A DNA stretch of 50,465 bases from a phage: sequence record NC_105618.1. One strand, 5' to 3'. The position numbers and the translations under genes were made by a program. The notes below the pieces were generated by a model. It was not told where the DNA came from, did not search any database, and saw only the letters and a list, made by a program, of their open reading frames with translations. Shown here in pieces: positions 1-50,465 of this stretch (within the stretch, counting starts at the first letter, position 1; every line of letters begins with the position of its first letter).

Positions 1-525
1 ATGAGTGAACCTAAGAACGCCCCCGTAGTCCAGGGAGGTAATTTCAAAGAGCTATACAAGAAAAAGTTCGGCACTGTTCTTGCTAAAAACCGGGCAATGA
101 CGCCTGAGCAACTATTCGATCTATCAGTTAAGTATTTCGAATGGGCTGAGGACAACGCAATCAAGGCGTCAGAATCAGCCAGCTTTCAGGGTGGCGTTTA
201 TGAATCGCTTGTTCATAAGCCGCGCGTCTTCACCTGGACCGGATACCGACTATTTATCGGTGCAAGCGAGGCTGCAATCATTAAGTGGAAGCGTGAGGAA
301 GAATACAGTGAGGTTATGGAGTTCGTGGAATCCGTAATCAACGAGCAAAAATTTCAGCTTGCCGCAAACGGCGTTATTAACGCCTCATTTATCGGCAAGG
401 ATCTCGGAATCGACAAGCCAGCCTCAATCAACATCGAAAACTCGGCAGCTTCAGCGTCGACCGCCGTCGCCACTACTGAGGACGCAATGAAAGAGGCTGT
501 AAACAGCATTCTTGATATGCTTTAA
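1..525 (+). CDS. putative terminase small subunit
   Basis: ORF directly upstream of terminase large subunit; RBS AGAGGA is formed across the window end/start junction; no diagnostic motif recognised. Confidence 0.45.
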   Translation: MSEPKNAPVVQGGNFKELYKKKFGTVLAKNRAMTPEQLFDLSVKYFEWAEDNAIKASESASFQGGVYESLVHKPRVFTWTGYRLFIGASEAAIIKWKREEEYSEVMEFVESVINEQKFQLAANGVINASFIGKDLGIDKPASINIENSAASASTAVATTEDAMKEAVNSILDML

Positions 526-6653: not shown

Positions 6654-6674
6654 CATAAAAACACTTTGACGCTT

Positions 6675-6689
6675 TAACAAAAAGTGCTA
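6675..6689. promoter_or_regulatory. palindromic motif (operator-like) before major capsid gene
   Basis: TAACA-AAAAG-TGCTA. Confidence 0.4.
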
Positions 6690-6697
6690 TTATTGAA

Positions 6698-6724
6698 GCC
6701 GTGAACATAATCACGGCTTTTTTA
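6698..6724 (+). terminator. intrinsic terminator with -10-like loop
   Basis: GCCGTGA-ACATAA-TCACGGC then T-run. Confidence 0.7.
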
Positions 6725-6744
6725 TTAACTACGGAGAAGTAATC

Positions 6745-7704
6745 ATGACTACTAAAAAATTTGATGAAGCAGATAAAAGCAATGTTGAAATGTATCTGAT
6801 CCAGGCTGGCGTAAAACAGGATGCAGCCGCAACGATGGGTATCTGGACCGCTCAGGAACTACACCGCATCAAGAGCCAGTCCTATGAAGAAGACTACCCG
6901 GTCGGCTCCGCTCTACGAGTATTCCCGGTTACAACCGAACTCTCTCCGACCGACAAGACGTTTGAGTACATGACCTTTGATAAGGTTGGTACTGCTCAGA
7001 TTATCGCTGACTATACCGATGACCTGCCTCTGGTTGATGCACTTGGTACTTCTGAATTTGGTAAGGTGTTCCGTTTGGGTAACGCGTATCTGATCTCAAT
7101 CGACGAAATCAAAGCAGGTCAGGCAACTGGTCGCCCACTGTCAACCCGTAAGGCGAGCGCGTGCCAGTTGGCGCATGATCAGCTTGTTAACCGCCTGGTG
7201 TTCAAAGGTTCCGCGCCGCACAAGATCGTGTCCGTGTTCAACCATCCGAACATCACCAAAATTACCTCCGGTAAGTGGATGAATGTCTCAACTCCGAAGC
7301 CGGAAACGGCTGAAGCGGAATTGACTCAGGCGATTGAAACCATCGAGACGATTACTCGCGGTCAGCATCGTGCAACCAACATTCTGATCCCGCCGTCCAT
7401 GCGTAAGGTTCTGGCGATCCGTATGCCTGAAACTACCATGTCTTACCTGGACTATTTCAAGTCTCAGAATGCTGGTATCGAAATCGACTCTATCGCAGAG
7501 CTTGAAGATATCGACGGTGCGGGTACTAAAGGCGTACTGGTGTACGAAAAAAATCCGATGAATATGTCCATCGAGATCCCGGAAGCATTTAACATGCTGC
7601 CAGCGCAGCCGAAAGACCTTCACTTTAAAGTGCCTTGCACCTCCAAGTGTACTGGCCTTACAATTTATCGTCCGATGACTATTGTATTAATCACTGGCGT
7701 GTAA
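6745..7704 (+). CDS. major capsid protein
   Basis: about 320 aa, strong RBS, flanked by terminators, position after scaffold/decoration genes. Confidence 0.7.
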   Translation: MTTKKFDEADKSNVEMYLIQAGVKQDAAATMGIWTAQELHRIKSQSYEEDYPVGSALRVFPVTTELSPTDKTFEYMTFDKVGTAQIIADYTDDLPLVDALGTSEFGKVFRLGNAYLISIDEIKAGQATGRPLSTRKASACQLAHDQLVNRLVFKGSAPHKIVSVFNHPNITKITSGKWMNVSTPKPETAEAELTQAIETIETITRGQHRATNILIPPSMRKVLAIRMPETTMSYLDYFKSQNAGIEIDSIAELEDIDGAGTKGVLVYEKNPMNMSIEIPEAFNMLPAQPKDLHFKVPCTSKCTGLTIYRPMTIVLITGV

Positions 7705-7710
7705 TATTAT

Positions 7711-7739
7711 AGGGACTAACTTAGTTGGTCCCTTTTTTA
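7711..7739 (+). terminator. intrinsic terminator
   Basis: GGGACTAAC...TTGGTCCC then T6. Confidence 0.7.
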
Positions 7740-7753
7740 TTGGAGAAATCAAA

Positions 7754-8044
7754 ATGGCTAAAGAAAAAACTGTTGTTATCGTAAACGTTGGTGTAGCGCT
7801 TCAGATGTTCCGTCTTGAAGATGGCTCATTCGCAAAGGTTCTCCCGGATGAAGAGGTGACACTCCCAGCATCCGCACTTGAATTGCCCGGGCTGCGTTGC
7901 TTGATTGCTCGCGAAGAAATCGAAGTAAAAGACGACAGTGCCACCAACCGGGAAATCCGCGCAGAGATGGCTAAACTTAAAAAACCTGATCCGTGGGATA
8001 AGATGAGCGTAAAAGATCTTGAAGACGGCGGCGAATACTATTAA
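7754..8044 (+). CDS. hypothetical structural protein
   Basis: strong RBS GGAGA, own terminator downstream. Confidence 0.4.
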   Translation: MAKEKTVVIVNVGVALQMFRLEDGSFAKVLPDEEVTLPASALELPGLRCLIAREEIEVKDDSATNREIRAEMAKLKKPDPWDKMSVKDLEDGGEYY

Positions 8045-8049
8045 TCAAC

Positions 8050-8074
8050 AAGGCGCTTAATGCGCCTTTTTTTA
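8050..8074 (+). terminator. intrinsic terminator
   Basis: AGGCGC-TTAA-TGCGCCT then T-run. Confidence 0.7.
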
Positions 8075-8086
8075 TAGGTGGAAATT

Positions 8087-8500
8087 ATGGATCAAGAAAC
8101 ATTAAACAAAGTGGTCGAGCAAATGAGAAAGCTGGTTCCGGCACTTCGCAAGGTTCCAGACGAAACGCTTTATGCATGGGTAGAAATGGCTGAGCTATTT
8201 GTATGCCAGAAGACCTTTAAAGATGCATACGTCAAGGCGCTTGCTCTTTATGCATTGCACCTTGCTTTCCTTGATGGGGCGCTAAAAGGTGAAGATGAGG
8301 ATCTTGAATCGTACTCACGACGCGTTACGTCATTCTCCCTGAGCGGTGAATTTAGCCAGACTTTTGGAGAGGTGACGAAGAACCAGTCAGAGAACATGAT
8401 GCTTTCGACGCCGTGGGGTAAGATGTTCGAACAGCTTAAAGCGCGACGCCGTGGTCGATTCGCATTAATGACAGGACTCCGTGGAGGATGCCACCAATGA
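8087..8500 (+). CDS. putative head-tail connector protein
   Basis: position between capsid and tail genes; in-frame ATG 8087 after AGGTGGA (track starts at GTG 8078). Confidence 0.35.
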   Translation: MDQETLNKVVEQMRKLVPALRKVPDETLYAWVEMAELFVCQKTFKDAYVKALALYALHLAFLDGALKGEDEDLESYSRRVTSFSLSGEFSQTFGEVTKNQSENMMLSTPWGKMFEQLKARRRGRFALMTGLRGGCHQ

Positions 8501-8868
8501 ACTACTCACAGATCGAAAGGATTGCTCGCAAAGGCGTGGCTTTCTTCACCGATGCATCAAGACCTATGAACCTGATAAAGCAAGGTGAATACGGATATGA
8601 TGAAAACGGATTCGAGATCCCACCGATGGAACAGGTTATTCCAATATCCGGCGCGACGCGAAGACCGAACGCGCGTGAGATTGACGGGGAGACTATCCGC
8701 GCCTCAGACCTTTTGGGGATCTTCAATAACGACCATGAAATAAACGAAGGTGACTATATAGAGATTGACGGCGTTCGTCATGTTGTCGTTGATGCTCGCC
8801 CGGTTCAGGCGTCACTGAAACCAGTCGCCTATCGCCCAGTATTGCGGAGGGTATCAGTAGGTGGCTAA
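8497..8868 (+). CDS. putative head-tail joining protein
   Basis: position; GGAGGA RBS; overlaps upstream stop. Confidence 0.3.
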   Translation: MNYSQIERIARKGVAFFTDASRPMNLIKQGEYGYDENGFEIPPMEQVIPISGATRRPNAREIDGETIRASDLLGIFNNDHEINEGDYIEIDGVRHVVVDARPVQASLKPVAYRPVLRRVSVGG

Positions 8869-9304
8869 TTATCAGATTCGTAGATTTCAAGGTGAGATTG
8901 ATGCGTGGATTAAGGCCGCTGAAAGCACGTTAGAACATTCCATTGAGATATTTGTAAGGGATGTTCACGACGCGCTCGTTAGCCGTTCTCCCGTCGACAC
9001 GGGGCGCTTTAAGGGTAACTGGCAGATAACTTTTAACGAAATCCCTAACTACGCATTAAATCGATACGATAAAACTGGCGGCGTCGTCCGTAGTGAGGAG
9101 CAAGCCAAAACTTATGGCATGTTCAGCCGTGGGGGCGCGATAACATCCGTTCACTTCTCAAACATGTTGATTTATGCAAACTCTCTTGAGTACGGTCATT
9201 CACAACAAGCACCAAACGGCGTCGTCGGGCTGGTTGCATTGAGATTGCGATCGTATATGGCAGACGCAATAAAGCAAGCAAGGAGACAACAAAATGCACT
9301 ATGA
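8861..9304 (+). CDS. putative neck / tail completion protein
   Basis: position; GTG start overlapping upstream stop. Confidence 0.3.
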   Translation: MANYQIRRFQGEIDAWIKAAESTLEHSIEIFVRDVHDALVSRSPVDTGRFKGNWQITFNEIPNYALNRYDKTGGVVRSEEQAKTYGMFSRGGAITSVHFSNMLIYANSLEYGHSQQAPNGVVGLVALRLRSYMADAIKQARRQQNAL

Positions 9305-9692
9305 GTTATCAGCGGCGGCGCGAGCCGCCTTTCTGTCGAAGTATAGAGACTTTCCTCACTACATGGAAAACAGGAACTTTACACCACCGAAGGATGGCGG
9401 CATGTGGCTAAGGTTCAACTACATTGAAGGGGATACGCTTTATCTATCAATTGACAGAAAGTGTAAATCTTACATTGCAATAGTTCAGATCGGAGTTGTG
9501 TTCCCTCCTGGTTCCGGCGTTGATGAGGCAAGATTGAAAGCAAAAGAGATTGCTGATTTTTTCAAAGATGGTAAAATGCTTAACGTTGGTTATATTTTCG
9601 AAGGTGCAATCGTGCATCAAATTGTTAAACACGAAAGCGGATGGATGATTCCGGTTCGCTTTACAGTACGAGTAGATACAAAGGAGACTTAA
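9294..9692 (+). CDS. putative tail terminator / completion protein
   Basis: position; AGGAGA RBS. Confidence 0.3.
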   Translation: MHYELSAAARAAFLSKYRDFPHYMENRNFTPPKDGGMWLRFNYIEGDTLYLSIDRKCKSYIAIVQIGVVFPPGSGVDEARLKAKEIADFFKDGKMLNVGYIFEGAIVHQIVKHESGWMIPVRFTVRVDTKET

Positions 9693-9693
9693 T

Positions 9694-10362
9694 ATGCACT
9701 TACCAAATGGCGCGCAAATTTTCGTGGAAACCTCTCGCGGAGAAGAGATCGAGGCGACCGCTGTCACTAACGCAAAAAATCCTGTTGCTACAGTTGCATC
9801 TAAGGGCGACTTGGCAAAAGGTGATTACGTTATTGTAACTCAGTCAACTTGGGCTAAGATGGTTAGTCGAGTACTTATTGTTACCGATGCTCAGGAAACA
9901 AGCATTACTCTTACTGGAATTGACACTACTGATACTCTTGTTTTCCCGGCTGGCGGTACGATGAGCTTTGCAAAAGTTACTGGCTGGACTGAGATTCCTT
10001 GCGTACAGGAGATTGGTCAGGACGGCGGTGAGCAGCAGTACTACACTTATCAGTGTTTGTCCGACGATAAAGAGCAGCAGATCCCGACGTTTAAATCTGC
10101 AATCTCGCTAACTTACACCTTCGCGCACGAATTTGATAACCCGATCTACCCTATTCTGCGTAAGCTGGATTCTTCTGGTCAGGTAACTGCGGTTCGTATG
10201 TATGTTCCAAAAGCGAACGAGATGCGCATGTGGGCTGGCATCTTGTCTTTTAACGACATTCCGTCTACGCAAGTAAACGAAATGGAAACGGTACAACTAG
10301 CCGTATCCCTGAAGGGTGATTTCACTTTCGTTTCATCCTCTCTGGCATCACCTGGTGCCTAA
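9694..10362 (+). CDS. putative major tail protein
   Basis: 222 aa ORF directly upstream of tail chaperone pair and tape measure; AGGAGA RBS. Confidence 0.5.
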   Translation: MHLPNGAQIFVETSRGEEIEATAVTNAKNPVATVASKGDLAKGDYVIVTQSTWAKMVSRVLIVTDAQETSITLTGIDTTDTLVFPAGGTMSFAKVTGWTEIPCVQEIGQDGGEQQYYTYQCLSDDKEQQIPTFKSAISLTYTFAHEFDNPIYPILRKLDSSGQVTAVRMYVPKANEMRMWAGILSFNDIPSTQVNEMETVQLAVSLKGDFTFVSSSLASPGA

Positions 10363-10374
10363 ATCATATCCACA

Positions 10375-10396
10375 GGGGGCTTGCGCCCCCTTATTC
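10375..10396 (+). terminator. hairpin, possible weak terminator
   Basis: GGGGGC-TTGC-GCCCCC then TTATT. Confidence 0.4.
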
Positions 10397-10438
10397 ATTT
10401 CTGTAAAATCATCGTATCAACTTTTCACTATTCTCTTT

Positions 10439-10453
10439 TAACAAAAAGTGCTA
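10439..10453. promoter_or_regulatory. palindromic motif abutting RBS of tail chaperone gene
   Basis: TAACA-AAAAG-TGCTA directly followed by ttaACCAATCAGGAGA and ATG 10476. Confidence 0.4.
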
Positions 10454-10475
10454 TTAACCAATCAGGAGAAATATC

Positions 10476-10793
10476 ATGGCTAAATTTAATTTCGTTCTTG
10501 GTCAACTTCCAGACTTCAAACTTCCAGTCACCTTCACCATGCCTAACGGTGAAGATGCAACGATCATTTTCACTGTACGCCACCTTTCCAGTAAAGAAGT
10601 TCAGGATATGTATGCCAACCAGGGAGAAATGAACGATAGCGAGTTCATTACCAAGATCGCGTCAGGATGGAACCTTGAAGAAGAATTTAACGAAGAAAAT
10701 GCGCGAAAACTGGTTCAGTATTATCCTTCAGCAGCGTACAACCTGACAGCGACTTACATCAAGGCTCTCGCCGGACACCGCGCAAAAAACTAA
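10476..10793 (+). CDS. tail assembly chaperone (G-like)
   Basis: small ORF directly upstream of tape measure, ending at slippery A_AAA_AAC heptamer. Confidence 0.6.
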   Translation: MAKFNFVLGQLPDFKLPVTFTMPNGEDATIIFTVRHLSSKEVQDMYANQGEMNDSEFITKIASGWNLEEEFNEENARKLVQYYPSAAYNLTATYIKALAGHRAKN

Positions 10794-16598: not shown

Positions 16599-16645
16599 GC
16601 CTGTATAATGGGTTCACCGATAAATAGCACAAAAAGGTAAACATC

Positions 16646-26264: not shown

Positions 26265-26342
26265 AGTATAAACTCCTTAAGTAAATAGCACGAATTGCTA
26301 AGCACTGATTTTATCATTGTGGTACTGGTCTTGCAATGGGCA

Positions 26343-27310: not shown

Positions 27311-27350
27311 CCAAATAAAAAACGCGTAGAAGGATGTTAACCCGCTACGC
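27311..27350 (-). terminator. intrinsic terminator
   Basis: ACGCGTAG...CTACGCGT hairpin followed by T-run on minus strand. Confidence 0.55.
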
Positions 27351-27360
27351 GTCGTTTGTT

Positions 27361-27813
27361 TTAACTAAAAATGCTATTTGTCGTTCCAATATCTTCCTTC
27401 TTCACGACCCGCATAAACTTCTTGTTTTTGCAGCGCTTCTCAAGGCACTTTCCGTTCCCATCAAACTTCAGATCGAATCGCAGCCATGCGGCCCGAAATC
27501 CTTTGCAACCCTGTCGGCGATAAGCACGATGCGCCGCTTCAGCGCCTTGCCAGGAAATCATATTTCGATCCTTCCAACCTTGAACCGTCTGGTTGCTAAC
27601 TTTCAGAGCCTTTGCACAAGCCGCCGGACCACCATAATATTCAATAAGAGCATCCAATCGCGCCCTCAGTCCTGCGCGCGTTTCTTCTTTATGGATATAA
27701 AATCCGCAGCGCTGGCGGGGCTTTTTGTCTTTACCGCGTCGTGTTCCGTTGTTACCATTGATGTGACGTTTATCGATTTCACCAGTAGACTCTGCGATAC
27801 GTTTCATATTCAT
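27361..27813 (-). CDS. putative HTH DNA-binding regulator
   Basis: KALKVSNQTVQGWKDR helix-turn-helix-like segment; in-frame ATG 27813 preceded by AGGAGA; palindromic motif lies in its 5' leader. Confidence 0.45.
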   Translation of the reverse strand: MNMKRIAESTGEIDKRHINGNNGTRRGKDKKPRQRCGFYIHKEETRAGLRARLDALIEYYGGPAACAKALKVSNQTVQGWKDRNMISWQGAEAAHRAYRRQGCKGFRAAWLRFDLKFDGNGKCLEKRCKNKKFMRVVKKEDIGTTNSIFS

Positions 27814-27827
27814 CTTAATTCTCCTGT

Positions 27828-27870
27828 AGCACTTTTTGCTAAAAACGTTTACTGTATGCCGTGTATTATA
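27828..27870 (+). promoter_or_regulatory. palindromic-motif promoter module (helicase operon)
   Basis: TAGCA-N5-TGCTA, 22 nt, TATTAT; overlaps RBS/start of divergent HTH gene. Confidence 0.5.
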
Positions 27871-27894
27871 TCGTAAACGATACAACGATTCAAA
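27866..27894 (-). promoter_or_regulatory. sigma70-like promoter of HTH regulator gene
   Basis: minus-strand TTGAAT, 17 nt spacer, TATAAT; approximate coordinates. Confidence 0.45.
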
Positions 27895-29926: not shown

Positions 29927-30339
29927 TTACAGATAAAGGCGATTACTTAGAGTTTTACGAGCGAGATCCTAGCGACACTCGAAAGGAGGACGCTCATCAA
30001 GTAGATTGCGTGTCCTGGTTGAAATACAATTTTCCTCAGCTTCTATTTTGGCACACAGTTAACGAAGGTGAAAAAACAATCACCTCGGCACTTAGGGATG
30101 AGCAGGCTGGATTGCTTAAAGGCGTATCAGACTTCGTTATCCTGATAGGTGTAAACTCACGCTACCCGTTTGCAGCTATCGAACTCAAGCGAGTTAATAA
30201 GTCCGGAAAAGGAAAGGCATCACCAGTCAGCGATAAGCAAAGGGAGTTTCTCAAAAAGGTTCGGGATCGCGGTGGATTCTCTGCCGTTGCATACGGATTT
30301 GAGCAATTCAAGCTGGCGATATACGATTTAACTAAATAG
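29923..30339 (+). CDS. VRR-NUC domain nuclease
   Basis: about 138 aa; GVSDFVIL ... IELK pattern consistent with a D...(D/E)XK core of VRR-NUC proteins. Confidence 0.6.
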   Translation: MITDKGDYLEFYERDPSDTRKEDAHQVDCVSWLKYNFPQLLFWHTVNEGEKTITSALRDEQAGLLKGVSDFVILIGVNSRYPFAAIELKRVNKSGKGKASPVSDKQREFLKKVRDRGGFSAVAYGFEQFKLAIYDLTK

Positions 30340-30379
30340 CACTTTTTGTTAAAACCGCCGGAATGGAATCTGGCATTAT
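30337..30379 (+). promoter_or_regulatory. palindromic-motif promoter module
   Basis: TAGCA-N5-TGTTA, 22 nt, CATTAT; upstream of Dam gene. Confidence 0.45.
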
Positions 30380-30406: not shown

Positions 30407-31120
30407 ATGAAAGACTTTAATGATATCGAAACAATCGACTTTGCAGAAACTGGGTGCTCATTCACTCGCGAAGCAATAGCATCAGGCGGTTATTATCAAG
30501 CATTGAAAACGCCAACCTGCAAAGAGATTTCTGGTCGTCGATACAAGGGAACAAATACGCCGGATGTTGTTCGTGATTTATGGTCAACTCCACGCGAGGT
30601 TATCGCATACCTTGAGGGTCGCTACGGAAAATATGATCTCGACGCTGCGGCAAGCGAAGAAAATAAAGTTTGCGAGAAGTTTTATTCCCAGGAAACAAAC
30701 TGCTTAAAACGTTGGTGGGGTAAAAATAAGCACGTATGGTTAAACCCTCCTTACAGTCGACCTGATATATTCGTCAAGAAAGCGATTGAGCAAATGGAGC
30801 ACAACAACCAGATCGATATTCTTTTACCTGCCGATAACTCGACTGCGTGGTTTACTGAGGCTCGACAGCACGCGGCTGAAATCATCTGGATTGAAGCTGA
30901 TTTGACTGAGGATATTGACGGCAATGAATACGCACGATCCGGTCGTCTGGCTTTCATATCAGGTGAAACTGGAAAAGCAGTAGACGGCAACAACAAAGGT
31001 TCGGTGATTTTTATTATGCGCAAACTTAAAGAAGGTGAGACGCAACAGACTCACTACATCCCAATCACAAGCATTTGCCCTTCTGTCAAAAACAAACGAG
31101 CAAAGGTGAGGAAAGTATGA
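30407..31120 (+). CDS. dam: DNA N6-adenine methyltransferase (phage Dam-type)
   Basis: DLDAAAS and NPPYS catalytic motifs. Confidence 0.8.
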   Translation: MKDFNDIETIDFAETGCSFTREAIASGGYYQALKTPTCKEISGRRYKGTNTPDVVRDLWSTPREVIAYLEGRYGKYDLDAAASEENKVCEKFYSQETNCLKRWWGKNKHVWLNPPYSRPDIFVKKAIEQMEHNNQIDILLPADNSTAWFTEARQHAAEIIWIEADLTEDIDGNEYARSGRLAFISGETGKAVDGNNKGSVIFIMRKLKEGETQQTHYIPITSICPSVKNKRAKVRKV

Positions 31121-31368
31121 TGAGCGAAAAAATGGTTCCTGTTAAATTAACTGATCAATGGTTATGGCTTCTTTATCGCGCTACGTGCTGCGAAATTATG
31201 GAGCAAAGCGGATTGACTAAGGATGTTATTGGCTGCGATCTGTGGGAGTTCACCAGTTCTCTTGATATGTCTTTCGATGAGATAAAAAATGAATATATCG
31301 AGCATTGGCCTTTGATTATCCAGAAAGACGTAGAGGAACTTAAAGCCGATACAATCTCACAGCACTAA
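31117..31368 (+). CDS. hypothetical protein
   Basis: ATGA overlap with Dam stop; in-frame ATG 31117. Confidence 0.4.
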   Translation: MMSEKMVPVKLTDQWLWLLYRATCCEIMEQSGLTKDVIGCDLWEFTSSLDMSFDEIKNEYIEHWPLIIQKDVEELKADTISQH

Positions 31369-31402
31369 TTGCTAAAAATACCCGGCGAAAGTCGGGTATA
31401 GT
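31360..31402 (+). promoter_or_regulatory. palindromic-motif promoter module
   Basis: CAGCA-N5-TGCTA, 22 nt, TATAGT inside hairpin ACCCG...CGGGT. Confidence 0.5.
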
Positions 31403-31644: not shown

Positions 31645-31894
31645 ACGAGAGGTTTGGGAGCACGCGAAGGAATGCGGAATCTCAGACGATATAGCACTAA
31701 TAGCGAAATATTTCGATATAAAGGATGTTAGCATTATCTCAAATGGCAAGATTTCATTTATGGAAGATATGCCGAGAAAAATGCATAGAGTGCCAGCAAC
31801 TCCGTCACTTGAGTTTTATCGTGAAGAGGGAAAGAGAATTGAGCGAGAACGAAAAACAGCAAAGAACAACAAGTCTTCCAGGCTTAAACATTAA
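31622..31894 (+). CDS. hypothetical protein (overlaps next ORF)
   Basis: track ORF; overlaps 31725-32126 in another frame, cannot both be fully coding. Confidence 0.25.
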   Translation: MLIKKQGKREVWEHAKECGISDDIALIAKYFDIKDVSIISNGKISFMEDMPRKMHRVPATPSLEFYREEGKRIERERKTAKNNKSSRLKH

Positions 31895-32204: not shown

Positions 32205-33356
32205 ATGTCACAAGCTAAAATCACTACCGAGCAACTTATCGAAGAGCGCATGAGCGGACTTACACTTCGCGAGATTGCGGAAAAGTACGGCATGCACATT
32301 CGAACTGTTGAAGCTCGTCACGCAAAACTTGCAAAGGAAGGTCACTTCCACGGTAACGAGCATGTTGCTAAGAACGTACCGGAAGGATTCATGGTAAAAG
32401 GCACATCAACGATGATTCGCGGCGATGGGACCGAGGTAGTGCGATGGGTTAAGACCGATCAGGACCGTGAGAAGATTGCGGCAATGATGGAAGCAGCGCG
32501 TATTGCATTCTGTGAAGACTTGCCGAGAGCAAAACCAACTGAGCTACTCACATCGCAAGGGCTTACAACCGCTATTGGCAAGCTGGCACTCTACCCGGTG
32601 TTCGATCTTCACATTGGCGCGCTTGCTCACAAGCATGAATGCGGAGAGAACTACTCTACAGACGTAGCGGAAAAAGTGCTGAATGACTTCTTTAACTACG
32701 CGATCGATATTGCCCCGAACGCAGAGAAGGCTGTTCTGTTAATCGGCGGCGACTTCCTTCACTCAGACGGTCTTGATGCTGTCACCCCGGCAAGCGGTCA
32801 CGTTCTGGATCAGGATTCACGATATGCGAAATTGGTGCATGTGGCTATTCGATCGGTGCGAAGAGCTATCGACAAAATGCTGACTAAACACAAAGAGGTC
32901 GAAGTTCAGGTTATCGAAGGGAACCACGACCAGGCCGGAATGATTTGGTTGCGCGCTGCAATGGCTGCATACTATGAAGATGAGCCGCGAGTATTCGTTG
33001 ACGTTAGTCCTATGATTCTTCATAAGACCCGCTGGGGAAATACCTTGTTGGGATACACTCACGGTCACACGATGAAAAAGGCAGACACGCGACTTGCAGC
33101 GATGGCGGCAGACTTCCGTGCAGACTTCGGTGAAAGCAAATACGTGTATACTCACAGCGGACACTGGCATCATCAAACAATCACAGAGCACTCTCTCGGT
33201 ATTGATGAGGTTCACGGTCAGCTTGGGGCGAAAGACGCATACGCCGCGCGGGGCGGGTGGCGCTCATATCGCCAGGCGGCGGTAATCGTTTACGATAAAC
33301 AGTTTGGTGAAATCGGTCGATTCATCTATCGTCCAGAAATGACAGGATCGCACTAA
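32205..33356 (+). CDS. HTH domain fused to calcineurin-like metallophosphoesterase
   Basis: N-terminal LTLREIAEKYGMHIRTVEARH HTH; phosphoesterase motifs FDLHIG, GGDFLHSDG, GNHD, GHTH, GHWHH. Confidence 0.65.
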   Translation: MSQAKITTEQLIEERMSGLTLREIAEKYGMHIRTVEARHAKLAKEGHFHGNEHVAKNVPEGFMVKGTSTMIRGDGTEVVRWVKTDQDREKIAAMMEAARIAFCEDLPRAKPTELLTSQGLTTAIGKLALYPVFDLHIGALAHKHECGENYSTDVAEKVLNDFFNYAIDIAPNAEKAVLLIGGDFLHSDGLDAVTPASGHVLDQDSRYAKLVHVAIRSVRRAIDKMLTKHKEVEVQVIEGNHDQAGMIWLRAAMAAYYEDEPRVFVDVSPMILHKTRWGNTLLGYTHGHTMKKADTRLAAMAADFRADFGESKYVYTHSGHWHHQTITEHSLGIDEVHGQLGAKDAYAARGGWRSYRQAAVIVYDKQFGEIGRFIYRPEMTGSH

Positions 33357-33390
33357 TCGCTAAAAACTCCCGAAGGGATTCTGGTATAGT
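33348..33390 (+). promoter_or_regulatory. palindromic-motif promoter module (degenerate half-sites)
   Basis: TCGCA-N5-CGCTA, 22 nt, TATAGT. Confidence 0.4.
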
Positions 33391-36948: not shown

Positions 36949-36993
36949 AAATGATACACCGCCAATGGTACACGCGTTTTGCAAAAAGTGCTA
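36949..36993 (-). promoter_or_regulatory. palindromic-motif promoter module
   Basis: minus strand TAGCA-N5-TGCAA, then hairpin CGGTGT...ACACCG with TATCAT. Confidence 0.45.
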
Positions 36994-36997
36994 TTGG

Positions 36998-37414: not shown

Positions 37415-37450
37415 TGCGTTAACTCCTGATTGGTTATCTTGAATAAGGTC

Positions 37451-37496
37451 ACTTTATCAAATGACCTTACGGCAATATTAACAAATCGTGCTATTT
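37451..37496 (-). promoter_or_regulatory. palindromic-motif promoter module
   Basis: minus strand TAGCA-N5-TGTTA, 22 nt, TAAAGT in hairpin AAGGTCA...TGACCTT. Confidence 0.45.
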
Positions 37497-37961: not shown

Positions 37962-38013
37962 TGGGAGTAATATACCTTACTCCCTGTTTATTGTCTTTAG
38001 CAATTAGTGCTAT
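37962..38013 (-). promoter_or_regulatory. palindromic-motif promoter module
   Basis: minus strand TAGCA-N5-TGCTA, then hairpin GGGAGTAAG...CTCCC with TATATT. Confidence 0.45.
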
Positions 38014-39085: not shown

Positions 39086-39127
39086 ACTATACCAGCCATC
39101 ACGGATTCGCGTTTAGCAAAAAGTGCT
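39086..39127 (-). promoter_or_regulatory. palindromic-motif promoter module
   Basis: minus strand TAGCA-N5-TGCTA then TATAGT. Confidence 0.45.
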
Positions 39128-39299
39128 ATTCGATGATCTCTTTCTCAACAATCGTTGTGTAGTCGTACATGCTCTTTCCGGCGCGAATCTGTTCCTTCAT
39201 TCTGTTCTCGTACTGCTTTGCCTTCTTTTCATCAAGGTGAACAGTCTCTACATATTCACCCTCATATTGAACGCCGCCCATAACGATATATACGATCAT
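39123..39299 (-). CDS. hypothetical small protein (58 aa)
   Basis: ATGA overlap with upstream stop; not in track. Confidence 0.25.
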
Positions 39300-39676: not shown

Positions 39677-39707
39677 CTCGTCATTCCTCTGATTGGTTGA
39701 TGTGTTA

Positions 39708-39750
39708 AATATACCCCGATTACCTTCGGGGCGTTTAGCAATTCGTGCTA
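39708..39750 (-). promoter_or_regulatory. palindromic-motif promoter module
   Basis: minus strand TAGCA-N5-TGCTA, 22 nt, TATATT in hairpin CCCCGAAGG...CGGGG. Confidence 0.45.
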
Positions 39751-40086
39751 TTAAGCGATATCGAACTCAGCGGCATATGCTTTCTTGAAGCCAGCTTCAC
39801 GCATGGTGCGCTTGCTGATTTTGCGCGGGAATTTGTACTGGCTGTTGGGTTTAACCCACCAAAAACAGGCAGTTTCACGAACGATTTCATATTTACCGTA
39901 ACGGGTGAAGATGTCACGTTCAGCGTCAGGCTGATAAATACAGGTCAGGAATTTAGCTGCATTTTCTTCAGTTTTGATTTCTTCCCATACGAAGGAATCC
40001 ATACCGTTAACTTTGCAAGCTACCATGATGTACTCAACGCCGTTTTCGATTTTGATGATTTCGTTACCGCGATTTTCGTATTTCAT
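39751..40086 (-). CDS. hypothetical protein
   Basis: track ORF with upstream promoter module. Confidence 0.45.
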   Translation of the reverse strand: MKYENRGNEIIKIENGVEYIMVACKVNGMDSFVWEEIKTEENAAKFLTCIYQPDAERDIFTRYGKYEIVRETACFWWVKPNSQYKFPRKISKRTMREAGFKKAYAAEFDIA

Positions 40087-40124: not shown

Positions 40125-40167
40125 ATTATGCCAAATCACACCGATCGAGTTTTAACAAAAAGTGCTA
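40125..40167 (-). promoter_or_regulatory. palindromic-motif promoter module
   Basis: minus strand TAGCA-N5-TGTTA, 22 nt, CATAAT; overlaps 3' end of methyltransferase ORF. Confidence 0.45.
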
Positions 40168-40865
40168 TTTGCAATTGCTTTGAAAAATCCACGTGGCGAC
40201 AGCGATCGTATCAACTTCGTTTTGGCAGACTTGCCGCCCAGCTTGTTATGCTGCGCAGAGTACCCGTCAGGCAGGCTTACTGGCTTTCTCTCCGGCATGA
40301 CAAAATCGTCCGAGGTCCAAAGACACGTCTTTTTCGGATAAGCATCGCGCGGCGCAATATACATCGGGAACCAGGGGTGCGAGTCATTCTCAGGAAGGTA
40401 GCCGCCATACTCCCAGGGATTGAATGAGTGATCTGGTTTTCTCCAGGCAGATGACAGAACGCTAACCGGATTCTCAATGATGTAAGTCACGCCCAGGGCA
40501 TCGCCAATATTCGCAGCAATCCGGGCGGTGGCAACAGCCTTCTCCTGGAATAACGGATCACGCTCACGCTTACTTGCAAAGTGCGCAGCGCCACTAACAG
40601 CTAGGTCAGTGCATGGAGGAAAGGCCATGATTAAATCCGGCTTGCCATACACACCAGCGATAGCATCACGTTCGAACTTCTCATCAATGAAGACGTTCAC
40701 ATACTCAATGTTCGGATGCTCTACCCTGGCATTGTACTTTGCATAATCTCCGTGATCTGCCCCGTCAAAGTTGAATCACATCACCTTATGACCTCGCTTT
40801 GCCAGTTCATGACCAGCAAGGCCGGAACCGTCGAATAATGACCAGATTAATTTCACTTGTTGCAT
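40152..40865 (-). pseudogene. DNA cytosine-5 methyltransferase-like gene interrupted by in-frame TGA
   Basis: N-terminal 29 codons (LFDGSGLAG, motif I-like) end at in-frame TGA about 40776-40778; downstream frame continues with AFPPC (motif IV-like) and IIENP (motif VI-like). Confidence 0.5.
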
Positions 40866-41048: not shown

Positions 41049-41092
41049 ACTATACCCTGCCAACATGGATAAGTCGTTAGCAAAAAATGCTA
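41049..41092 (-). promoter_or_regulatory. palindromic-motif promoter module
   Basis: minus strand TAGCA-TTTTT-TGCTA, about 23 nt, TATAGT. Confidence 0.45.
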
Positions 41093-41701
41093 TTCCAATA
41101 ATTGCTCATTATTCCATCAATAGTGGAATAGTTGGAATAATTGCGATCCCGATTGATCTCGAATGATGAAACGTGATTATTGCATGGTGTGCAACAGTTG
41201 GTTGATTTGTTGCTGAGAATGCAATGATTGTGAGAGGGAGGATTTAGTGTTACCCGGTTCGCCTGGTAGTCATCTCCATTTTTAGCAAAAAGTGCTATCG
41301 ATTACACTTTAACTTGTCACGACTGTAATATTTGTCTAGAATCGCCATTGTGACAAAATTACACACTGTGACGCCTCTAAATATACATATAGATATATGT
41401 ATCTATATAATATATATAGTGTTTTTTTTATTTATATATATAGATAATTATATTGTAATAGCTGTGTATAGTTGTCTTACATTGTCTAGCGTACTGTTGG
41501 CATATTTCTATCTGCATGTTTATATATACAGTAATTTTTTGTGAGCTATATATTTCTATAGTGACTCTATACAGCTAGACAAATGTTACACAGCTTAAAA
41601 TTGGCTCGCAGGCGTTGACATATCTGCATTGCGCTGTCACAATGGCAATTGTTGACGCGTTATGACACCATTTACACACGAATAGACAAAGAGGTTATAT
41701 T
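41084..41701. promoter_or_regulatory. AT-rich divergent control region with repeats
   Basis: about 618 bp without ORFs of 60 aa or more; shares TCTATATAATATATATAG and GCTGTGTA..AGTTGTCT blocks with 21325-21851; GGAATA(A/G)TTG repeats. Confidence 0.6.
41283..41297. promoter_or_regulatory. isolated palindromic motif in control region
   Basis: TAGCA-AAAAG-TGCTA with no -10-like hexamer at the usual spacing. Confidence 0.35.
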
Positions 41702-42217: not shown

Positions 42218-42232
42218 GCACTGAACGGTAAA

Positions 42233-42275
42233 TAGCACTTTTTGTTAAAACCGGATCGGGATGGCTTGGTATAGT
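42233..42275 (+). promoter_or_regulatory. palindromic-motif promoter module
   Basis: TAGCA-N5-TGTTA, 22 nt, TATAGT in hairpin GGGAT...ATCCC. Confidence 0.5.
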
Positions 42276-42306
42276 TATCCCATCGGCAACGAATTAGGAA
42301 ACGAAG

Positions 42307-42501
42307 ATGGAAACGCAAATTGACGTAGTGGTTGTTCAGCGCGATTCAACTCACGAGAAGGGTCTGTTCAAGAAAGGAACCAAAATCACTATCGACCTTG
42401 AGGATATGGTTGCGTATCACTCGGGTCTTACCTGGAATGTGGTGCGAGTTGGCAGCGACTACAAACTCAAAGGCTTTAACACTTACTTTGCTGAGGCTTA
42501 A
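42307..42501 (+). CDS. hypothetical protein
   Basis: track ORF. Confidence 0.4.
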   Translation: METQIDVVVVQRDSTHEKGLFKKGTKITIDLEDMVAYHSGLTWNVVRVGSDYKLKGFNTYFAEA

Positions 42502-42503
42502 TC

Positions 42504-42971
42504 ATGACGACTATCACCGTATTTCTGGCTAAAGATGAATTGGACGGCGAAATGTCATTCTTCGCGTTCGAGCATAAAACCGGATCGCACTGGCACACGT
42601 ACACTCATTACACGGTCATCGCAATTGAGGCTTACGACGGCGATTTCACTGACAAGCTGAGTAATTTTATTGAAGCGGTTAAGGCTGGCGACGGCTGCGA
42701 GTGGAAAGAAGATCATGAAGTTATGCGAATGTATGAGATGATTGATCCGGTTCGCCTTGAGTCTTTCGAGCTTGGTTCTGGCGTGACCATTAAGGTGAGA
42801 AAGTCGGGTGAGTTATTGCCAGGAATGCGTGTGCTGACTGGTTACTCAGGACGTAAGGTATGGCGCACTGTATCCAAGATTCGCCAGCGATCGGCAACAT
42901 GCTACAGCGTATTCTTTGAAGATGGTTGGAATATGATGTCAGGAAGTGAAGTGAAGTATCTCACCAAATAG
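42504..42971 (+). CDS. hypothetical protein
   Basis: track ORF, coupled to upstream gene. Confidence 0.45.
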   Translation: MTTITVFLAKDELDGEMSFFAFEHKTGSHWHTYTHYTVIAIEAYDGDFTDKLSNFIEAVKAGDGCEWKEDHEVMRMYEMIDPVRLESFELGSGVTIKVRKSGELLPGMRVLTGYSGRKVWRTVSKIRQRSATCYSVFFEDGWNMMSGSEVKYLTK

Positions 42972-43011
42972 CACGAATTGTTAAAACAGGATCGGGGTAT
43001 CTTGCTATAGT
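42969..43011 (+). promoter_or_regulatory. palindromic-motif promoter module
   Basis: TAGCA-N5-TGTTA, 22 nt, TATAGT in hairpin GGGGTA...TACCCC. Confidence 0.5.
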
Positions 43012-43833: not shown

Positions 43834-44025
43834 ATGGCTGATTTTATGCACCAAATGATTGCAGTATTCAAAGGCAGTGATGATGAGGAAGTTAAAGAGT
43901 GCTTTACCGTTGACAAGCCTTATAACGCGTCACTAACCAGCTTCGGGAATATCTCATTGCTTGATGATAATGGCGATCCCTGGATATTCGACGAAGACAC
44001 TGATTGCTTCGAGATTAAAGAATAG
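43834..44025 (+). CDS. small acidic protein
   Basis: 63 aa, Asp/Glu-rich. Confidence 0.35.
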   Translation: MADFMHQMIAVFKGSDDEEVKECFTVDKPYNASLTSFGNISLLDDNGDPWIFDEDTDCFEIKE

Positions 44026-44066
44026 CACTTTTTGTTAAAACTCAATATTGGGGTTGCGATATAGTA
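44024..44066 (+). promoter_or_regulatory. palindromic-motif promoter module
   Basis: TAGCA-N5-TGTTA, 22 nt, TATAGT. Confidence 0.5.
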
Positions 44067-44096: not shown

Positions 44097-44585
44097 ATGA
44101 AAATCAAATTACTTTGCACTGGCGGTTACAAAGGCTTTACTCGCGACCTGGAAGCGGACCCTATCGTGGTTGACGCTGTGAAGTGTGATGATAGCCTGGG
44201 CGGCTACCGCGTTAATGTTGACGACCTGGTTAAAGCTGGCGTGTACGATCTGGATTATGGACTTTCGGTTAGCCCGGTAGTCGGCCCGGCAGATTTCAAC
44301 GAGAAGGACGGAACGATGTTCTTTTTCGATCGGGAAGTCCAGGCAAACATCAAGCCTCGCAAGGTTCGACTTCTCAACAATGGCGGTTATCCTATGCGAC
44401 CAGGTTATGAGAATCGCACGTTCCCGGTGATTGTTGACTTTGAAGAAATCACCGCGCACTTAGCTTATATCAACGGTGAACAGCTTAATGCTGTTGGATT
44501 CGTGGGAGGCATGAATCAAGAGGCGCTATGCTTCTTCCACTGTAAAGCCGAGCCGTTCGATATTGAGTGTGAGTTAGTATACTAA
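44097..44585 (+). CDS. hypothetical protein
   Basis: track ORF; N-terminus MKIKLLCTGGYKG resembles repeated small-domain family. Confidence 0.45.
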   Translation: MKIKLLCTGGYKGFTRDLEADPIVVDAVKCDDSLGGYRVNVDDLVKAGVYDLDYGLSVSPVVGPADFNEKDGTMFFFDREVQANIKPRKVRLLNNGGYPMRPGYENRTFPVIVDFEEITAHLAYINGEQLNAVGFVGGMNQEALCFFHCKAEPFDIECELVY

Positions 44586-44626
44586 GCACGAATTGTTAAA
44601 AGGGGATTTGGCCTGACTGGTATAAT
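44584..44626 (+). promoter_or_regulatory. palindromic-motif promoter module
   Basis: AAGCA-N5-TGTTA, 22 nt, TATAAT in hairpin GGGGAT...ATCCCC. Confidence 0.5.
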
Positions 44627-45164: not shown

Positions 45165-45228
45165 TGAGCAATTGGCATAACGAACATGTAATGCAGTTTT
45201 ACCGTAATCGCATCAAGAAAGTTTTGAA

Positions 45229-45271
45229 TAGCACGAATTGCTAAACCTTCCGCAAGGCCATTTGATATAGT
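45229..45271 (+). promoter_or_regulatory. palindromic-motif promoter module
   Basis: TAGCA-N5-TGCTA, 22 nt, TGaTATAGT in hairpin AGGCCA...TGGCCT. Confidence 0.5.
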
Positions 45272-45310
45272 GGCCTTATTGAAGCAGGGCAACCAATCAG
45301 AGGAATCATC

Positions 45311-46397: not shown

Positions 46398-46584
46398 CAG
46401 CAGAAGATGCAGCGCTTGACGCAGTGGAAGGAATGCGCCCAAATACCTCCAGAATCGCACACTACTACAAATCTGAGGTGTCGGCAGTGCAATTGGTCCA
46501 CGAAATTTTAAGGCTCCCACAAGTCGATTCAGCGCGCGTGGTGACGTGCTTAAAAAATTATTTTTGCATCACTATTAAAACGAA

Positions 46585-46627
46585 TAGCACGAATTGCTAA
46601 AACCTATCAAGGGGAATGCGCTATGAT
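46585..46627 (+). promoter_or_regulatory. palindromic-motif promoter module
   Basis: TAGCA-N5-TGCTA, 22 nt, TATGAT in hairpin GGGGAAT...ATTCCCC. Confidence 0.5.
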
Positions 46628-46657: not shown

Positions 46658-47104
46658 ATGAAACATTTGATTTGCATTGAAACACCTAACGATGAATACA
46701 CCCTGCACGGCATCGGAATGTTCAAAGGTCACTACATGACAGCAAGTATTTATGATGCGCGTCGCGGCGATGGCGATCTGATGATTACCTCAAAAGAGGT
46801 TAATCCGTACATCATGCAGAATCTTGGAAATAACGAATATATGGCCTACGGCTGCAACGCGGTGTATAAGCATATCAAGATCCGCAAGCGTGTCGTGCGA
46901 TCATTCAAGAAAATTGCAATGAAACACTGGAAGATGAGCAAGAAAGATGCCGGACATTGGGCGCGTGACGTTGCATATTCATACTTCTACCGTAACGGCG
47001 AATCCTGCTACTTTCTGATCGATGAACTTATGGAAAACTACGGTGGCGACTTCAGTCAGGGTAGCTTTGATGACTGGGCCAACTATGAGATCAGTTGCTG
47101 GTAA
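46658..47104 (+). CDS. hypothetical protein
   Basis: GAGGGA RBS before in-frame ATG 46658 (track start 46616 lies inside promoter module). Confidence 0.45.
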   Translation: MKHLICIETPNDEYTLHGIGMFKGHYMTASIYDARRGDGDLMITSKEVNPYIMQNLGNNEYMAYGCNAVYKHIKIRKRVVRSFKKIAMKHWKMSKKDAGHWARDVAYSYFYRNGESCYFLIDELMENYGGDFSQGSFDDWANYEISCW

Positions 47105-47147
47105 TAGCACGAATTGCTAAAACTTGCTCAAGGGTATTTGATAGAAT
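47105..47147 (+). promoter_or_regulatory. palindromic-motif promoter module
   Basis: TAGCA-N5-TGCTA, 22 nt, TAGAAT in hairpin. Confidence 0.5.
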
Positions 47148-47186
47148 GCCCTTCGTTGAGTTAAGCAACCAATCAGAGGAATTACT

Positions 47187-48031: not shown

Positions 48032-48604
48032 ATGAAAACAGCTATCATTTTAAACGGTGCGCCTGGTGCGGGAAAAGACACTATAGGGTGCATCCTGGCT
48101 GACACTTACGATCATGTAGCGCTACGCAGCTTTAAAGCTCCAATGTTTGAGATTGCCCGAGCAATCTTGGGTGAGACTAATTTCGAGTATTTCATGTTCT
48201 TGTATGAGGACCGTCGCTATAAAGAAGAGCCAGCATCAATCCTGAACGGTAAAAGCCCACGCCAGTTTATGATCTGGATTAGCGAGGAGGTCATCAAGCC
48301 GCAGTTCGGAAATCGCTTCTTCGGTATGCGAGCGGAAAGCAAGGTGAAAGAGTCGCACTCCCTTTCGGTATTTACTGACGGTGGATTCAAAGATGAGATC
48401 CTACAAATGATTGAAGGTGATATCCAGGTTAAGCTATGTCGAATCCATCGCAACGGTTGCAGCTTTGATAACGACAGCCGAGACTATATCTATCTTGACG
48501 ATATGATCGGGGTCAACGGTTATCAGGAATGTGACTTCTTTTCTGTCGAAGGCCATCCAGAAATTACCGCTCAGCACATAGCCGCCACGTTCATCAACAA
48601 GTAG
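48032..48604 (+). CDS. P-loop kinase (polynucleotide kinase or dNMP kinase-like)
   Basis: Walker A GAPGAGKDT. Confidence 0.6.
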   Translation: MKTAIILNGAPGAGKDTIGCILADTYDHVALRSFKAPMFEIARAILGETNFEYFMFLYEDRRYKEEPASILNGKSPRQFMIWISEEVIKPQFGNRFFGMRAESKVKESHSLSVFTDGGFKDEILQMIEGDIQVKLCRIHRNGCSFDNDSRDYIYLDDMIGVNGYQECDFFSVEGHPEITAQHIAATFINK

Positions 48605-48644
48605 CACGAATTGCTAAAACGTCGGTGGGGTGATTTGATATAGT
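48602..48644 (+). promoter_or_regulatory. palindromic-motif promoter module
   Basis: TAGCA-N5-TGCTA, 22 nt, TGaTATAGT. Confidence 0.5.
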
Positions 48645-50389: not shown

Positions 50390-50413
50390 AACCCGCTTCG
50401 GCGGGTTTTTTTA
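50390..50413 (+). terminator. intrinsic terminator
   Basis: ACCCGC-TTCG-GCGGGT hairpin then T7. Confidence 0.7.
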
Positions 50414-50424: not shown

Positions 50425-50447
50425 TGGTAAAATAGCAATAAATGTTA
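50425..50447 (+). promoter_or_regulatory. extended -10 promoter plus palindromic operator upstream of gene at position 1
   Basis: TGgTAAAAT followed by TAGCA-N5-TGTTA, then AGAGGA RBS completed by ATG at position 1. Confidence 0.45.
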
Positions 50448-50465
50448 AACAAAGAGGATGGATTT

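Follow-up and report, generated by a model that had tools for sequence, protein, structure and literature searches.

Sequence record NC_105618.1 (50,465 nt, analyzed over its whole length and called the window below) is the complete genome of a T1-like phage (Tunavirus, Drexlerviridae). Over the late region, it shares 96% identity with Escherichia phage vB_EcoS_SA12KD (SA12KD below). A short repeat lies in front of late genes at three places: the major capsid gene (site A), the tail chaperone gene (site B), and the small terminase gene terS (site C). Coordinate 1 is the start of terS, so the window's end is the upstream region of this gene. An earlier note on this DNA had described the repeat as a palindrome at operator-like positions, through which one protein could activate early promoters and repress structural operons. 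Direct reading confirmed the sequences at all three places. TAACAAAAAGTGCTA was read on the plus strand at both 6675-6689 and 10439-10453, and 50433-50447 was TAGCAATAAATGTTA. Sites A and B were identical over 20 nt including flanks (TTTAACAAAAAGTGCTATTA). The pattern TARCA-N5-TGYTA occurred 20 times in the window, whereas 0.19 occurrences were expected from dinucleotide-preserving shuffles.

The motif is the core of a 21-nt repeat of the T1 family. The re-annotation of TLS reported an intergenic direct repeat with the consensus aaATAGCACnnnTTGnTAAAA, present in 18 intergenic copies that are co-oriented with transcription and lie about 76 nt upstream of start codons (PMC11447400). Its authors reported the repeat in T1, Rtp, and Rogue1 as well, suggested a stoperator, an enhancer, or an UP element as its role, and listed its function as an open question (PMC11447400). 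Sites A and B matched this consensus on the minus strand; site C matched it on the plus strand except for C7, which is A there. The window shares with TLS the sequence, the many intergenic copies, and the co-orientation of early-gene copies with transcription. Sites A to C are atypically placed copies. Sites A and B are reversed relative to their flanking genes and lie at late promoters, whereas site C is near the start codon, its box ending 14 nt from the ATG instead of about 76 nt.

Copies of the repeat at late promoters

Site A was found inside P_mcp, the sigma-70 promoter of the major capsid gene (coordinates of all features are in Table 1). The earlier note had placed it ahead of this region; a promoter is indeed there, but the box lies within it and does not precede it. 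It covers about -30 to -11, which is the spacer and the first 3 nt of the -10. Among sigma-70 matches in the genome, P_mcp ranks in the top two or three, and it is an annotated promoter in SA12KD. Of 24 related loci, 22 retained P_mcp and the core TTARCA-N5-GTGCTAT, even where capsid protein identity fell to 53%. The core was also present in a Webervirus and is conserved across Drexlerviridae. The terminator-like hairpin behind the promoter would stop upstream read-through. By analogy with the -10 spacing of micF, the P_mcp start is predicted at about 6699-6701, in the 5' arm of this hairpin. Transcripts from P_mcp would therefore lack the full stem and escape the terminator. A leftward promoter at site A (TGtTATGCA at 18 nt) was considered and rejected, as neither the window nor most relatives have T at its position 6.

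Site B had been noted as lacking the 22-nt/-10 arrangement of the early copies. The arrangement is present on the minus strand, where the box is followed after 18 nt by an extended -10. In relatives, this leftward -10 read TACGAT, TAAGAT, TAGGAT, or TACAGT; T1, A2, T6, and the TG were invariant, and only positions 3-5 varied. The 18-nt spacer kept its length while its sequence was entirely changed. The rightward -10 of the chaperone operon reads TATAAT at the same place in distant relatives, directly after the terminator. As the leftward and rightward -10s are separated by one base, we propose that the two promoters are mutually exclusive. Site B is thus better read as a leftward promoter unit competing with the rightward promoter than as a simple operator. 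A leftward transcript would run antisense into the 3' end of the major tail gene; no minus-strand terminator was called. Relative to the rightward transcript, the box lies at +19 to +38, 9 nt from the Shine-Dalgarno sequence (SD, 10464-10468). Besides Tunavirus, two genera with 63-65% tail protein identity carried site B.

Site C reaches from about -9 to +11 at the terS promoter and overlaps the last two bases of its extended -10. It was present in 17 of 24 related loci, mostly as the closer match ATAGCACTAAATGTTAAAC. In distant relatives, the terminator and a TGgTATAAT or TGcTATAAT promoter were kept and the box was absent. Sites B and C are conserved in Tunavirus and the nearest relatives.

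Three copies beyond those listed earlier each lie between a promoter and a start codon, at the central tail fibre gene (site D), the side tail fibre gene (site E), and a regulator gene (site F). The box of site D abuts the ATG (16646), and of the 44 loci in which this region was located, TLS among them, nearly all had a box-like element (ATAGCAC or ACAGCAC) here. The box of site E (26285-26304) is forward on the plus strand and reversed relative to the gene, covers about -4 to +16, and is followed by the SD and the ATG (26264). Tunavirus kept it, as did several other genera in modified form. In other genera, the side tail fibre gene was preceded by a terminator, TGCTATTAT (or TGCTATAAT), 11 nt, TTAGCAAAAAGTGCTAT (at some loci TTAACAA...), and the SD; one half of a box serves here as an extended -10 as well, with a complete reversed box behind it. 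At site F, the box lies at +13 to +32 of the opposing regulator-gene promoter, and the -10 hexamers of the helicase and regulator promoters overlap. Nearly every related locus in which the regulator gene was found shows this layout.

Absence of the repeat from close relatives had been named as a ground for abandoning a regulatory role. Sites A, B, C, and D persist in relatives, so this ground fell away. At all five late-gene promoters examined (terS, capsid, tail chaperone, and both tail fibres), a box lies between -30 and +38 relative to the predicted start. From sequence and position, regulation through these boxes is plausible.

Geometry of the box and comparison with the marbox

We collected 28 copies of the box in the window. 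A unit was defined as the 20-mer plus a -10-like hexamer (A2, T6, and at least four of six matches). Such a hexamer was located 18 nt (three times 19 nt) downstream of the 20-mer in 23 of the 28 copies, and the orientation of the box relative to the -10 was identical in all 23 units. The bases at positions 1-7 of these units were A (19 units), T (20), A (22), G (23), C (23), A (23), and C (21). Position 8 was T or G, and positions 9 and 10 were A or T, at position 10 in all 23. Positions 11-13 were T (23), T (19), and G (23); position 14 was C (13) or T (10); and positions 15-20 were T (21), A (23), A (23), A (21), A (15), and C (11). About 26 near-perfect or high-quality boxes are present per genome of about 50 kb.

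The motif is not a palindrome, as had been claimed, but the asymmetric 20-mer ATAGCACnnnnTGYTAAAAC. Dyad symmetry is restricted to the position pairs 2/16, 3/15, 5/13, and 6/12. Positions 7 (C) and 11 (T) were complementary in none of the 23 units, positions 1/17 in two, and positions 4/14 in 13. The conserved AAAAC tail has no mirror half.

The box was compared with the marbox, the site of MarA, SoxS, and Rob, which are stress regulators of E. coli and monomeric activators of the AraC family. Two published marbox consensuses, both derived without reference to phages, were tested in the window. GCANNWWNTGNNAAA (definition from PMC12052159) gave 21 perfect matches, versus 0.95 expected. AYNGCACNNWNNRYYAAAY (PMC2064960), with at most one mismatch, gave 22 matches, versus 1.12 expected. 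Sites A, B, and C were all among the matches. Relative to the consensus AYNGCACNNWNNRYYAAAYN, sites A and B each had one mismatch (position 19), and site C had one (A7). The base counts of the 23 units satisfied all specified consensus positions except Y19, and the degenerate positions behaved as predicted (W10 in every unit; Y14 split between C and T). The 20-mer is also non-palindromic with a fixed orientation to the promoter, as required of a marbox.

A host counterpart was the micF promoter of E. coli K-12 MG1655, which reads ACAGCACTGAATGTCAAAAC, 18 nt, TAGAAT, and 7 nt before +1. The phage unit, ATAGCAC-nnnn-TGYTAAAAC, 18 nt, TATAGT, has the micF geometry to the base pair. A3 and the AAAAC tail, which are outside the consensus, are common to the phage unit and micF. 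At micF, RamA acts as a class II activator bound at about -41. In the class II promoter of fumC, about 17-18 nt separate a perfect 19-mer from the likely -10; as with many phage units, a terminator directly precedes this promoter. The MarA target site xseA-guaB (GCATTTTTTGCAAAA) was nearly identical to individual phage boxes, and the target site mdaB (GCACATTTTGCTAAT) resembled them. The inaA upstream region showed no clean box/-10 geometry on reading.

The rob promoter, which is repressed by MarA and SoxS, provided a counterpart for site A. In E. coli K-12 it contains cAGCAAAAAATGCTATTAT, with the same box-to-(-10) register as site A. It also shares a 16-nt exact match, AGCAAAAAATGCTATT (plus strand), with phage positions 41078-41092 plus one flanking base. 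The rob marbox lies backward between the -35 and the -10. The full rob promoter reads CACTGAATGCTAAAACAGCAAAAAATGCTATTAT (NC_000913.3, 4635311-4635400, minus strand), and a micF-like element (CACTGAATGCTAAAAC) lies upstream of the 16-nt match. At pbpG, a marbox in the promoter spacer leads to repression by MarA, SoxS, and Rob. In its arrangement, site A resembles the pbpG and rob promoters.

Marboxes fall into geometric classes. A class II marbox is forward, overlaps the -35 region, and is centred between -36 and -55. Marboxes centred between -35 and +25 overlap the core promoter and form the repression class. The early units and site B (on the minus strand) have class II geometry; sites A and C do not. 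Measured from predicted starts, sites A, C, and E have the repression geometry. Activation and repression through one site type has a documented precedent in the MarA/SoxS/Rob system, with class II activation at micF and repression at pbpG, rob, purA, and hdeA. The phage boxes are like known marboxes in consensus, asymmetry, and fixed orientation, in the forward box 18 nt from the -10 and centred near -41.5 as at micF, and in the reversed box in the spacer or across the core promoter, which in the host is associated with repression. They differ in lying on a virulent phage genome instead of the host chromosome, in their number (about 26 near-perfect copies in 50 kb, versus degenerate host sites), and in that most early units have their -10 in the loop or 3' arm of a covarying hairpin.

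These likenesses suggest that the T1-like repeat is a marbox for MarA, SoxS, or Rob (RamA in Klebsiella) that would activate early and damp late promoters, a reading to which we give an even chance. The earlier proposal of one protein with both effects is strengthened by the positions of the boxes beyond what was first argued, but its symmetric operator is lost. The TLS paper draws no link to the marbox (PMC11447400), and our literature search found no paper linking T1-like phages with MarA, SoxS, or the marbox. The repeat and marbox regulation are each known; equating them, together with the late-promoter placements, is new as far as we searched the literature.

Candidate readers of the box

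No AraC/XylS domain was found in a Pfam scan of 40 phage open reading frames (ORFs; 30 early and 10 middle). The only matches of helix-turn-helix (HTH) type in these ORFs were a Cro-like one in a 150-aa protein and sub-threshold ones in a 383-aa ORF (32205-33356). The latter was rejected as a regulator, as it matched PHROG 'DNA repair exonuclease' (E = 5e-157); its Webervirus homologue is annotated 'sigma-70 region 4 domain'. The 150-aa protein had a P22 Cro-type HTH match (E = 7e-5, sub-threshold in Pfam) and matched a PHROG 'transcriptional regulator' family (E = 4e-76). Its family is confined to Drexlerviridae-type contigs, no homologues outside Drexlerviridae were found, and a PDB sequence search with it returned nothing meaningful. 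In an alignment of 13 homologues, the N-terminal NGNNGTRRGKDKK motif was invariant and the predicted recognition helix was variable. The invariant N-terminal stretch reads INGNNGTRRGKDKKxR, the C-terminal half contains Cys, and the gene lies between primase and helicase. As the N-terminal motif and the C-terminal half are conserved above the HTH, the main role of this protein may not be sequence-specific operator binding.

The 150-aa protein is the rival candidate binder. As a Cro-like dimer on the TAGCA-N5-TGCTA core, it would switch on early and middle promoters from a position near -41.5, repress its own promoter as well as the late ones, and in this way time the programme; the marbox resemblance would be coincidental. 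We consider this unlikely, although, besides the HTH and PHROG matches, the family co-occurs with the box, the box core is a 5+5 dyad with 10-bp half-site spacing, and in nearly all loci with the gene a box lies between its sigma-70 promoter and its SD, as in autoregulation. The symmetry is broken at positions 7/11 and 4/14, the tail is unmirrored, and the fixed orientation to the -10 in every unit would be needless for a symmetric dimer. The predicted recognition helix differs strongly between lineages (SNQTVQGW in the window versus CCVRLTNAY in phage Vc1), whereas the boxes of Vc1 and Webervirus are identical. Neither dyad symmetry of the conserved positions nor conservation of the helix where the operator is conserved, both expected of a dimeric Cro/CI-type operator, was found. 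The exact micF geometry would be left to chance. In addition, no phage protein is present at infection, so the strong capsid promoter would then be unrepressed.

Sites B and F are like the PR/PRM region of lambda in that one protein site is shared between opposed promoters with overlapping or adjacent -10s, where occupancy would favour one promoter and exclude the other, and a Cro-like gene lies beside site F. The phage box differs in being asymmetric and single instead of a set of tandem symmetric operators, the phage is virulent, and the helix does not track the site.

A host protein of the MarA/SoxS/Rob type (RamA in Klebsiella) is favoured because of the box asymmetry, the identity with micF, and the variable phage helix. 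It appears a more probable binder than a phage regulator. Escherichia, Shigella, Klebsiella, Salmonella, and Citrobacter hosts encode a MarA-family protein. Two phages with other listed names do not discriminate on host range: 'Stenotrophomonas' phage BUCT705 is a Webervirus with the same boxes, and Vibrio phage pA2SJ1 shares the terminase alone and has no boxes. An IMG/VR scan for ATAGCACNNNNNTGNTAAAAC was uninformative, giving 30 single, apparently chance matches and no T1-like contig.

Several points weigh against a host marbox protein. Unstressed cells contain little MarA and SoxS, and Rob is mostly inactive in the absence of inducers; the dependence of about 20 promoters on them is therefore not obviously advantageous. 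Vibrio phage Vc1 (MT360682.2, Drexlerviridae; host listed as V. cholerae) has identical box-18 nt-(-10) units, at least 10 in 25 kb. In each genus examined, the 150-aa gene starts right beside a box. Neither consensus includes A3 and T11, which are conserved in the phage, and position 19 is mostly A where the consensus has Y. Site C scored 13.6 bits on the early-site matrix, versus 25-37 bits for most canonical early units. Repression at site B hinges on the proposed leftward promoter, because a monomer at +19 to +38 would be a weak roadblock. The consensus is also degenerate, with 17,730 marbox sites of at most two mismatches in E. coli (PMC12052159).

The late copies could also be non-regulatory, with only the early units functional. 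Site A would then be a chance likeness produced by an extended -10 (TGCTATTAT) and an A-rich spacer, and sites B and C would be recombination relics, promoter cassettes moved between the many repeats. In other genera, late promoters repeatedly have TGCTAT(T/A)AT as an ordinary extended -10, more distant relatives lack sites B and C and have simple promoters at the same places, and site C is a weak match. Nevertheless, this is a poor candidate, and a less likely one than the phage protein. The core within the site A spacer has been kept down to 53% capsid identity, though spacers need no specific sequence. While the spacer of site B diverged fully, its length stayed exactly 18 nt, and the box and the critical -10 bases were retained. 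Nearly all loci examined carry sites D and F, and Tunavirus and, in modified form, several other genera carry site E. Boxes at five of five late promoters are unlikely when one random match is expected per genome.

Least probable of the regulatory alternatives is a box without a dedicated regulator, acting as an UP-like element or other direct RNA polymerase contact at promoters lacking a -35, or as a stoperator-like or RNA-level signal; we regard it as very improbable. At -51 to -32 the box overlaps the region of the proximal UP subsite, its centre and tail are A/T-rich, and the UP element, enhancer, and stoperator are the options of the TLS authors (PMC11447400). However, the invariant G4, C5, and G13 and the C at position 7 in 21 of 23 units are not UP-element features, and copies 3' of predicted starts or reversed (sites A, B, E, and F) cannot serve as UP elements. 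A shared role at the RNA level is unlikely, because forward and reverse copies yield different RNAs; the window matched no Rfam family, and no lysogeny-type repressor is evident. The stoperators of mycobacteriophage L5, the analogy drawn by the TLS authors (PMC11447400), are likewise many short asymmetric copies, mostly oriented with transcription, in short intergenic regions. They differ in that they block elongation in transcribed DNA through a lysogenic repressor, whereas most phage boxes lie 18 nt upstream of a -10, which is activator geometry, and no repressor or lysogeny module is evident. Two further candidates were rejected on reading: targets of the Type I restriction systems EcoKI (AAC-N6-GTGC) and EcoBI, as the box has AAC-N5-GTGC, and a -35 hexamer, as the 3' half TTGCTA is 22 nt from the -10 and thus too far. 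No rival accounts for as many conserved positions and placements as the marbox.

Proposed regulation and further units

With the box taken as a marbox, the following mechanism is proposed. We infer the binding of the factor, the sign of its effect at each site, and the route of relief from sequence comparison. At about 20 early and middle promoters, the forward box centred near -41.5 would replace the -35, and the host factor would recruit RNA polymerase as at class II micF. At the late promoters of sites A, C, D, and E, the bound box would overlap the promoter and hinder RNA polymerase. The reversed box in the spacer and -10 of the capsid promoter would repress as at pbpG and rob, and at site C the protein would lie across the -10 and start of the terS promoter. 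At site B, polymerase recruited to the leftward class II promoter would exclude the rightward chaperone promoter, and at site F the factor-driven opposing promoter would interfere with the regulator gene promoter. While active factor is available, early genes would be on and structural operons damped.

Late repression might then be relieved, as we can only suppose, by titration of the factor on replicating genomes together with the decay of MarA and SoxS after host shut-off. With roughly 26 high-quality boxes per genome, replication would draw off the factor. MarA and SoxS are Lon substrates with short half-lives; their loss would therefore not be made good after host shut-off. A more far-reaching version, which we hold as tentative and rather doubtful, is that the whole temporal programme is wired to mar/sox/rob, with the boxes activating, repressing late genes, and then acting as a decoy sink. 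Replicated phage genomes would strip MarA, SoxS, and Rob from host promoters, and the early-to-late switch would be timed by titration and by decay of the Lon-labile activators, with no phage-encoded timing regulator. In that case, inducers of these factors (antibiotics, bile, salicylate, and oxidants) would directly reprogramme infection.

The marbox reading turns the open question on the repeat (PMC11447400) into one that is testable with existing reagents. If it is true, a large virulent enterobacterial phage family would depend on and respond to regulators that drive multidrug efflux and down-regulate porins; with one 1-kb query from the late region, more than 500 related records were matched. 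This would matter for phage-antibiotic combinations and for phages using MarA-induced TolC as a receptor. It would also matter for understanding early/late ordering in a phage that has no RNA polymerase or sigma factor of its own and no obvious late activator.

Table 1. Boxes, promoter elements, terminators, and genes in the window. Spacings are between box and -10 or between -35 and -10.
Feature	Position	Strand	Details
Terminase small subunit gene (terS), first in window	1..525	+	ORF; tblastn matches in relatives; annotated terS in Vc1 and BUCT705
P_mcp, sigma-70 promoter of major capsid gene	6666..6693	+	TTGACG, 16 nt, TGc-TATTAT; 10/12 matches plus TG
Site A, box	6671..6690	-	ATAGCACTTTTTGTTAAAGC; reversed relative to capsid gene; core 6675-6689
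Terminator-like hairpin with T-run	6695..6720	+	Starts 2 nt after P_mcp -10
Major capsid protein gene	6745..7704	+	ORF; annotation of relatives
Terminator after major tail protein gene	10374..10391	+	Annotated in SA12KD
Rightward promoter-like element, tail chaperone/tape-measure operon	10381..10409	+	TTGCGC, 17 nt, TAAAAT (10404-10409)
Leftward extended -10	10411..10420	-	tTGaTACGAT; exactly 18 nt from box
Site B, box	10435..10454	-	ATAGCACTTTTTGTTAAAAG; class II-type for leftward -10; core 10439-10453
Tail assembly (tape-measure) chaperone gene	10476..10793	+	ORF; annotation of relatives
Site D, central tail fibre gene	16602..16643	+	TGtATAAT promoter after terminator; box ATAGCACAAAAAGGTAAACA 16624-16643 at about +8 to +27
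Site E, side tail fibre gene	26285..26336	-	Promoter TTGCAA, 17 nt, TAAAAT (26336-26308)
Canonical unit upstream of primase gene	27334..27377	-	Box, 18 nt, TAACAT
150-aa Cro-like HTH protein, rival candidate binder	27361..27813	-	PHROG 2856 'transcriptional regulator'
Site F, helicase and regulator genes	27826..27893	.	Box 27826-27845 (+), class II for helicase promoter, -10 TATTAT 27864-27869; opposing sigma-70 promoter TTGAAT, 17 nt, TATAAT, 27893-27865
Canonical unit upstream of dam methylase gene	30336..30379	+	Box, 18 nt, CATTAT
Canonical unit	31359..31402	+	ACAGCAC..., 18 nt, TATAGT
Canonical unit	33347..33390	+	ATCGCAC..., 18 nt, TATAGT
Canonical unit	36951..36994	-	Box, 18 nt, TATCAT
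Canonical early unit	37451..37494	-	
Canonical early unit	37969..38013	-	19-nt spacing
Canonical early unit	39086..39129	-	
Canonical early unit	39708..39751	-	
Canonical early unit	40125..40168	-	
Canonical early unit	41049..41093	-	19-nt spacing; 16 nt of box and flank, AGCAAAAAATGCTATT, equal part of rob promoter
Box without -10 at canonical distance	41279..41298	-	Divergent early control region; strong, 30 bits
Canonical early unit	42232..42275	+	
Canonical early unit	42968..43011	+	
Canonical early unit	44022..44065	+	
Canonical early unit	44583..44626	+	TAAGCAC..., TATAAT
Canonical early unit	45228..45271	+	
Canonical early unit	46584..46627	+	
Canonical early unit	47104..47147	+	
Canonical early unit	48601..48644	+	
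Terminator upstream of terS	50390..50407	+	Sequence call
Extended -10 promoter of terS	50425..50433	+	TGgTAAAAT; read from sequence
Site C, box	50432..50451	+	ATAGCAATAAATGTTAAACA; forward; core 50433-50447

In most early units (42258-42281, 45254-45278, 48621-48656, and most others), the -10 tTGnTATAGT lies in the loop and 3' arm of an inverted repeat. These inverted repeats are of 6-15 bp, and their arms vary between copies yet remain complementary (z = -2.2 to -6 in 7 of 10 tested). The hairpins are annotated as rho-independent terminators in SA12KD, and the T-run is missing in most. They might act on read-through RNA, as terminators or as processing hairpins, and have DNA in common with the promoter that follows. 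A leader, AACCAATCAG(A/G)GGA, recurs just 5' of many start codons, early and late (10455-10468, 37420-37440, 39680-39700, 45290-45305, 47165-47180, and others), and may be an extended ribosome-binding or translational-enhancer motif.

The box at 41279-41298 adjoins three sigma-70-like promoters (41314-41342, 41382-41411, and 41615-41643) between two early blocks. Weaker boxes were found within coding sequence at 30727-30746 (plus strand, dam methylase gene) and 31691-31710 (plus strand, a small ORF), with a -10-like hexamer at 19 and 18 nt, respectively; they may be internal promoters. The early ORF at 42307-42501 (plus strand) matched Pfam PF25180, 'phage antiviral trigger protein Gp54' (E = 9e-36).

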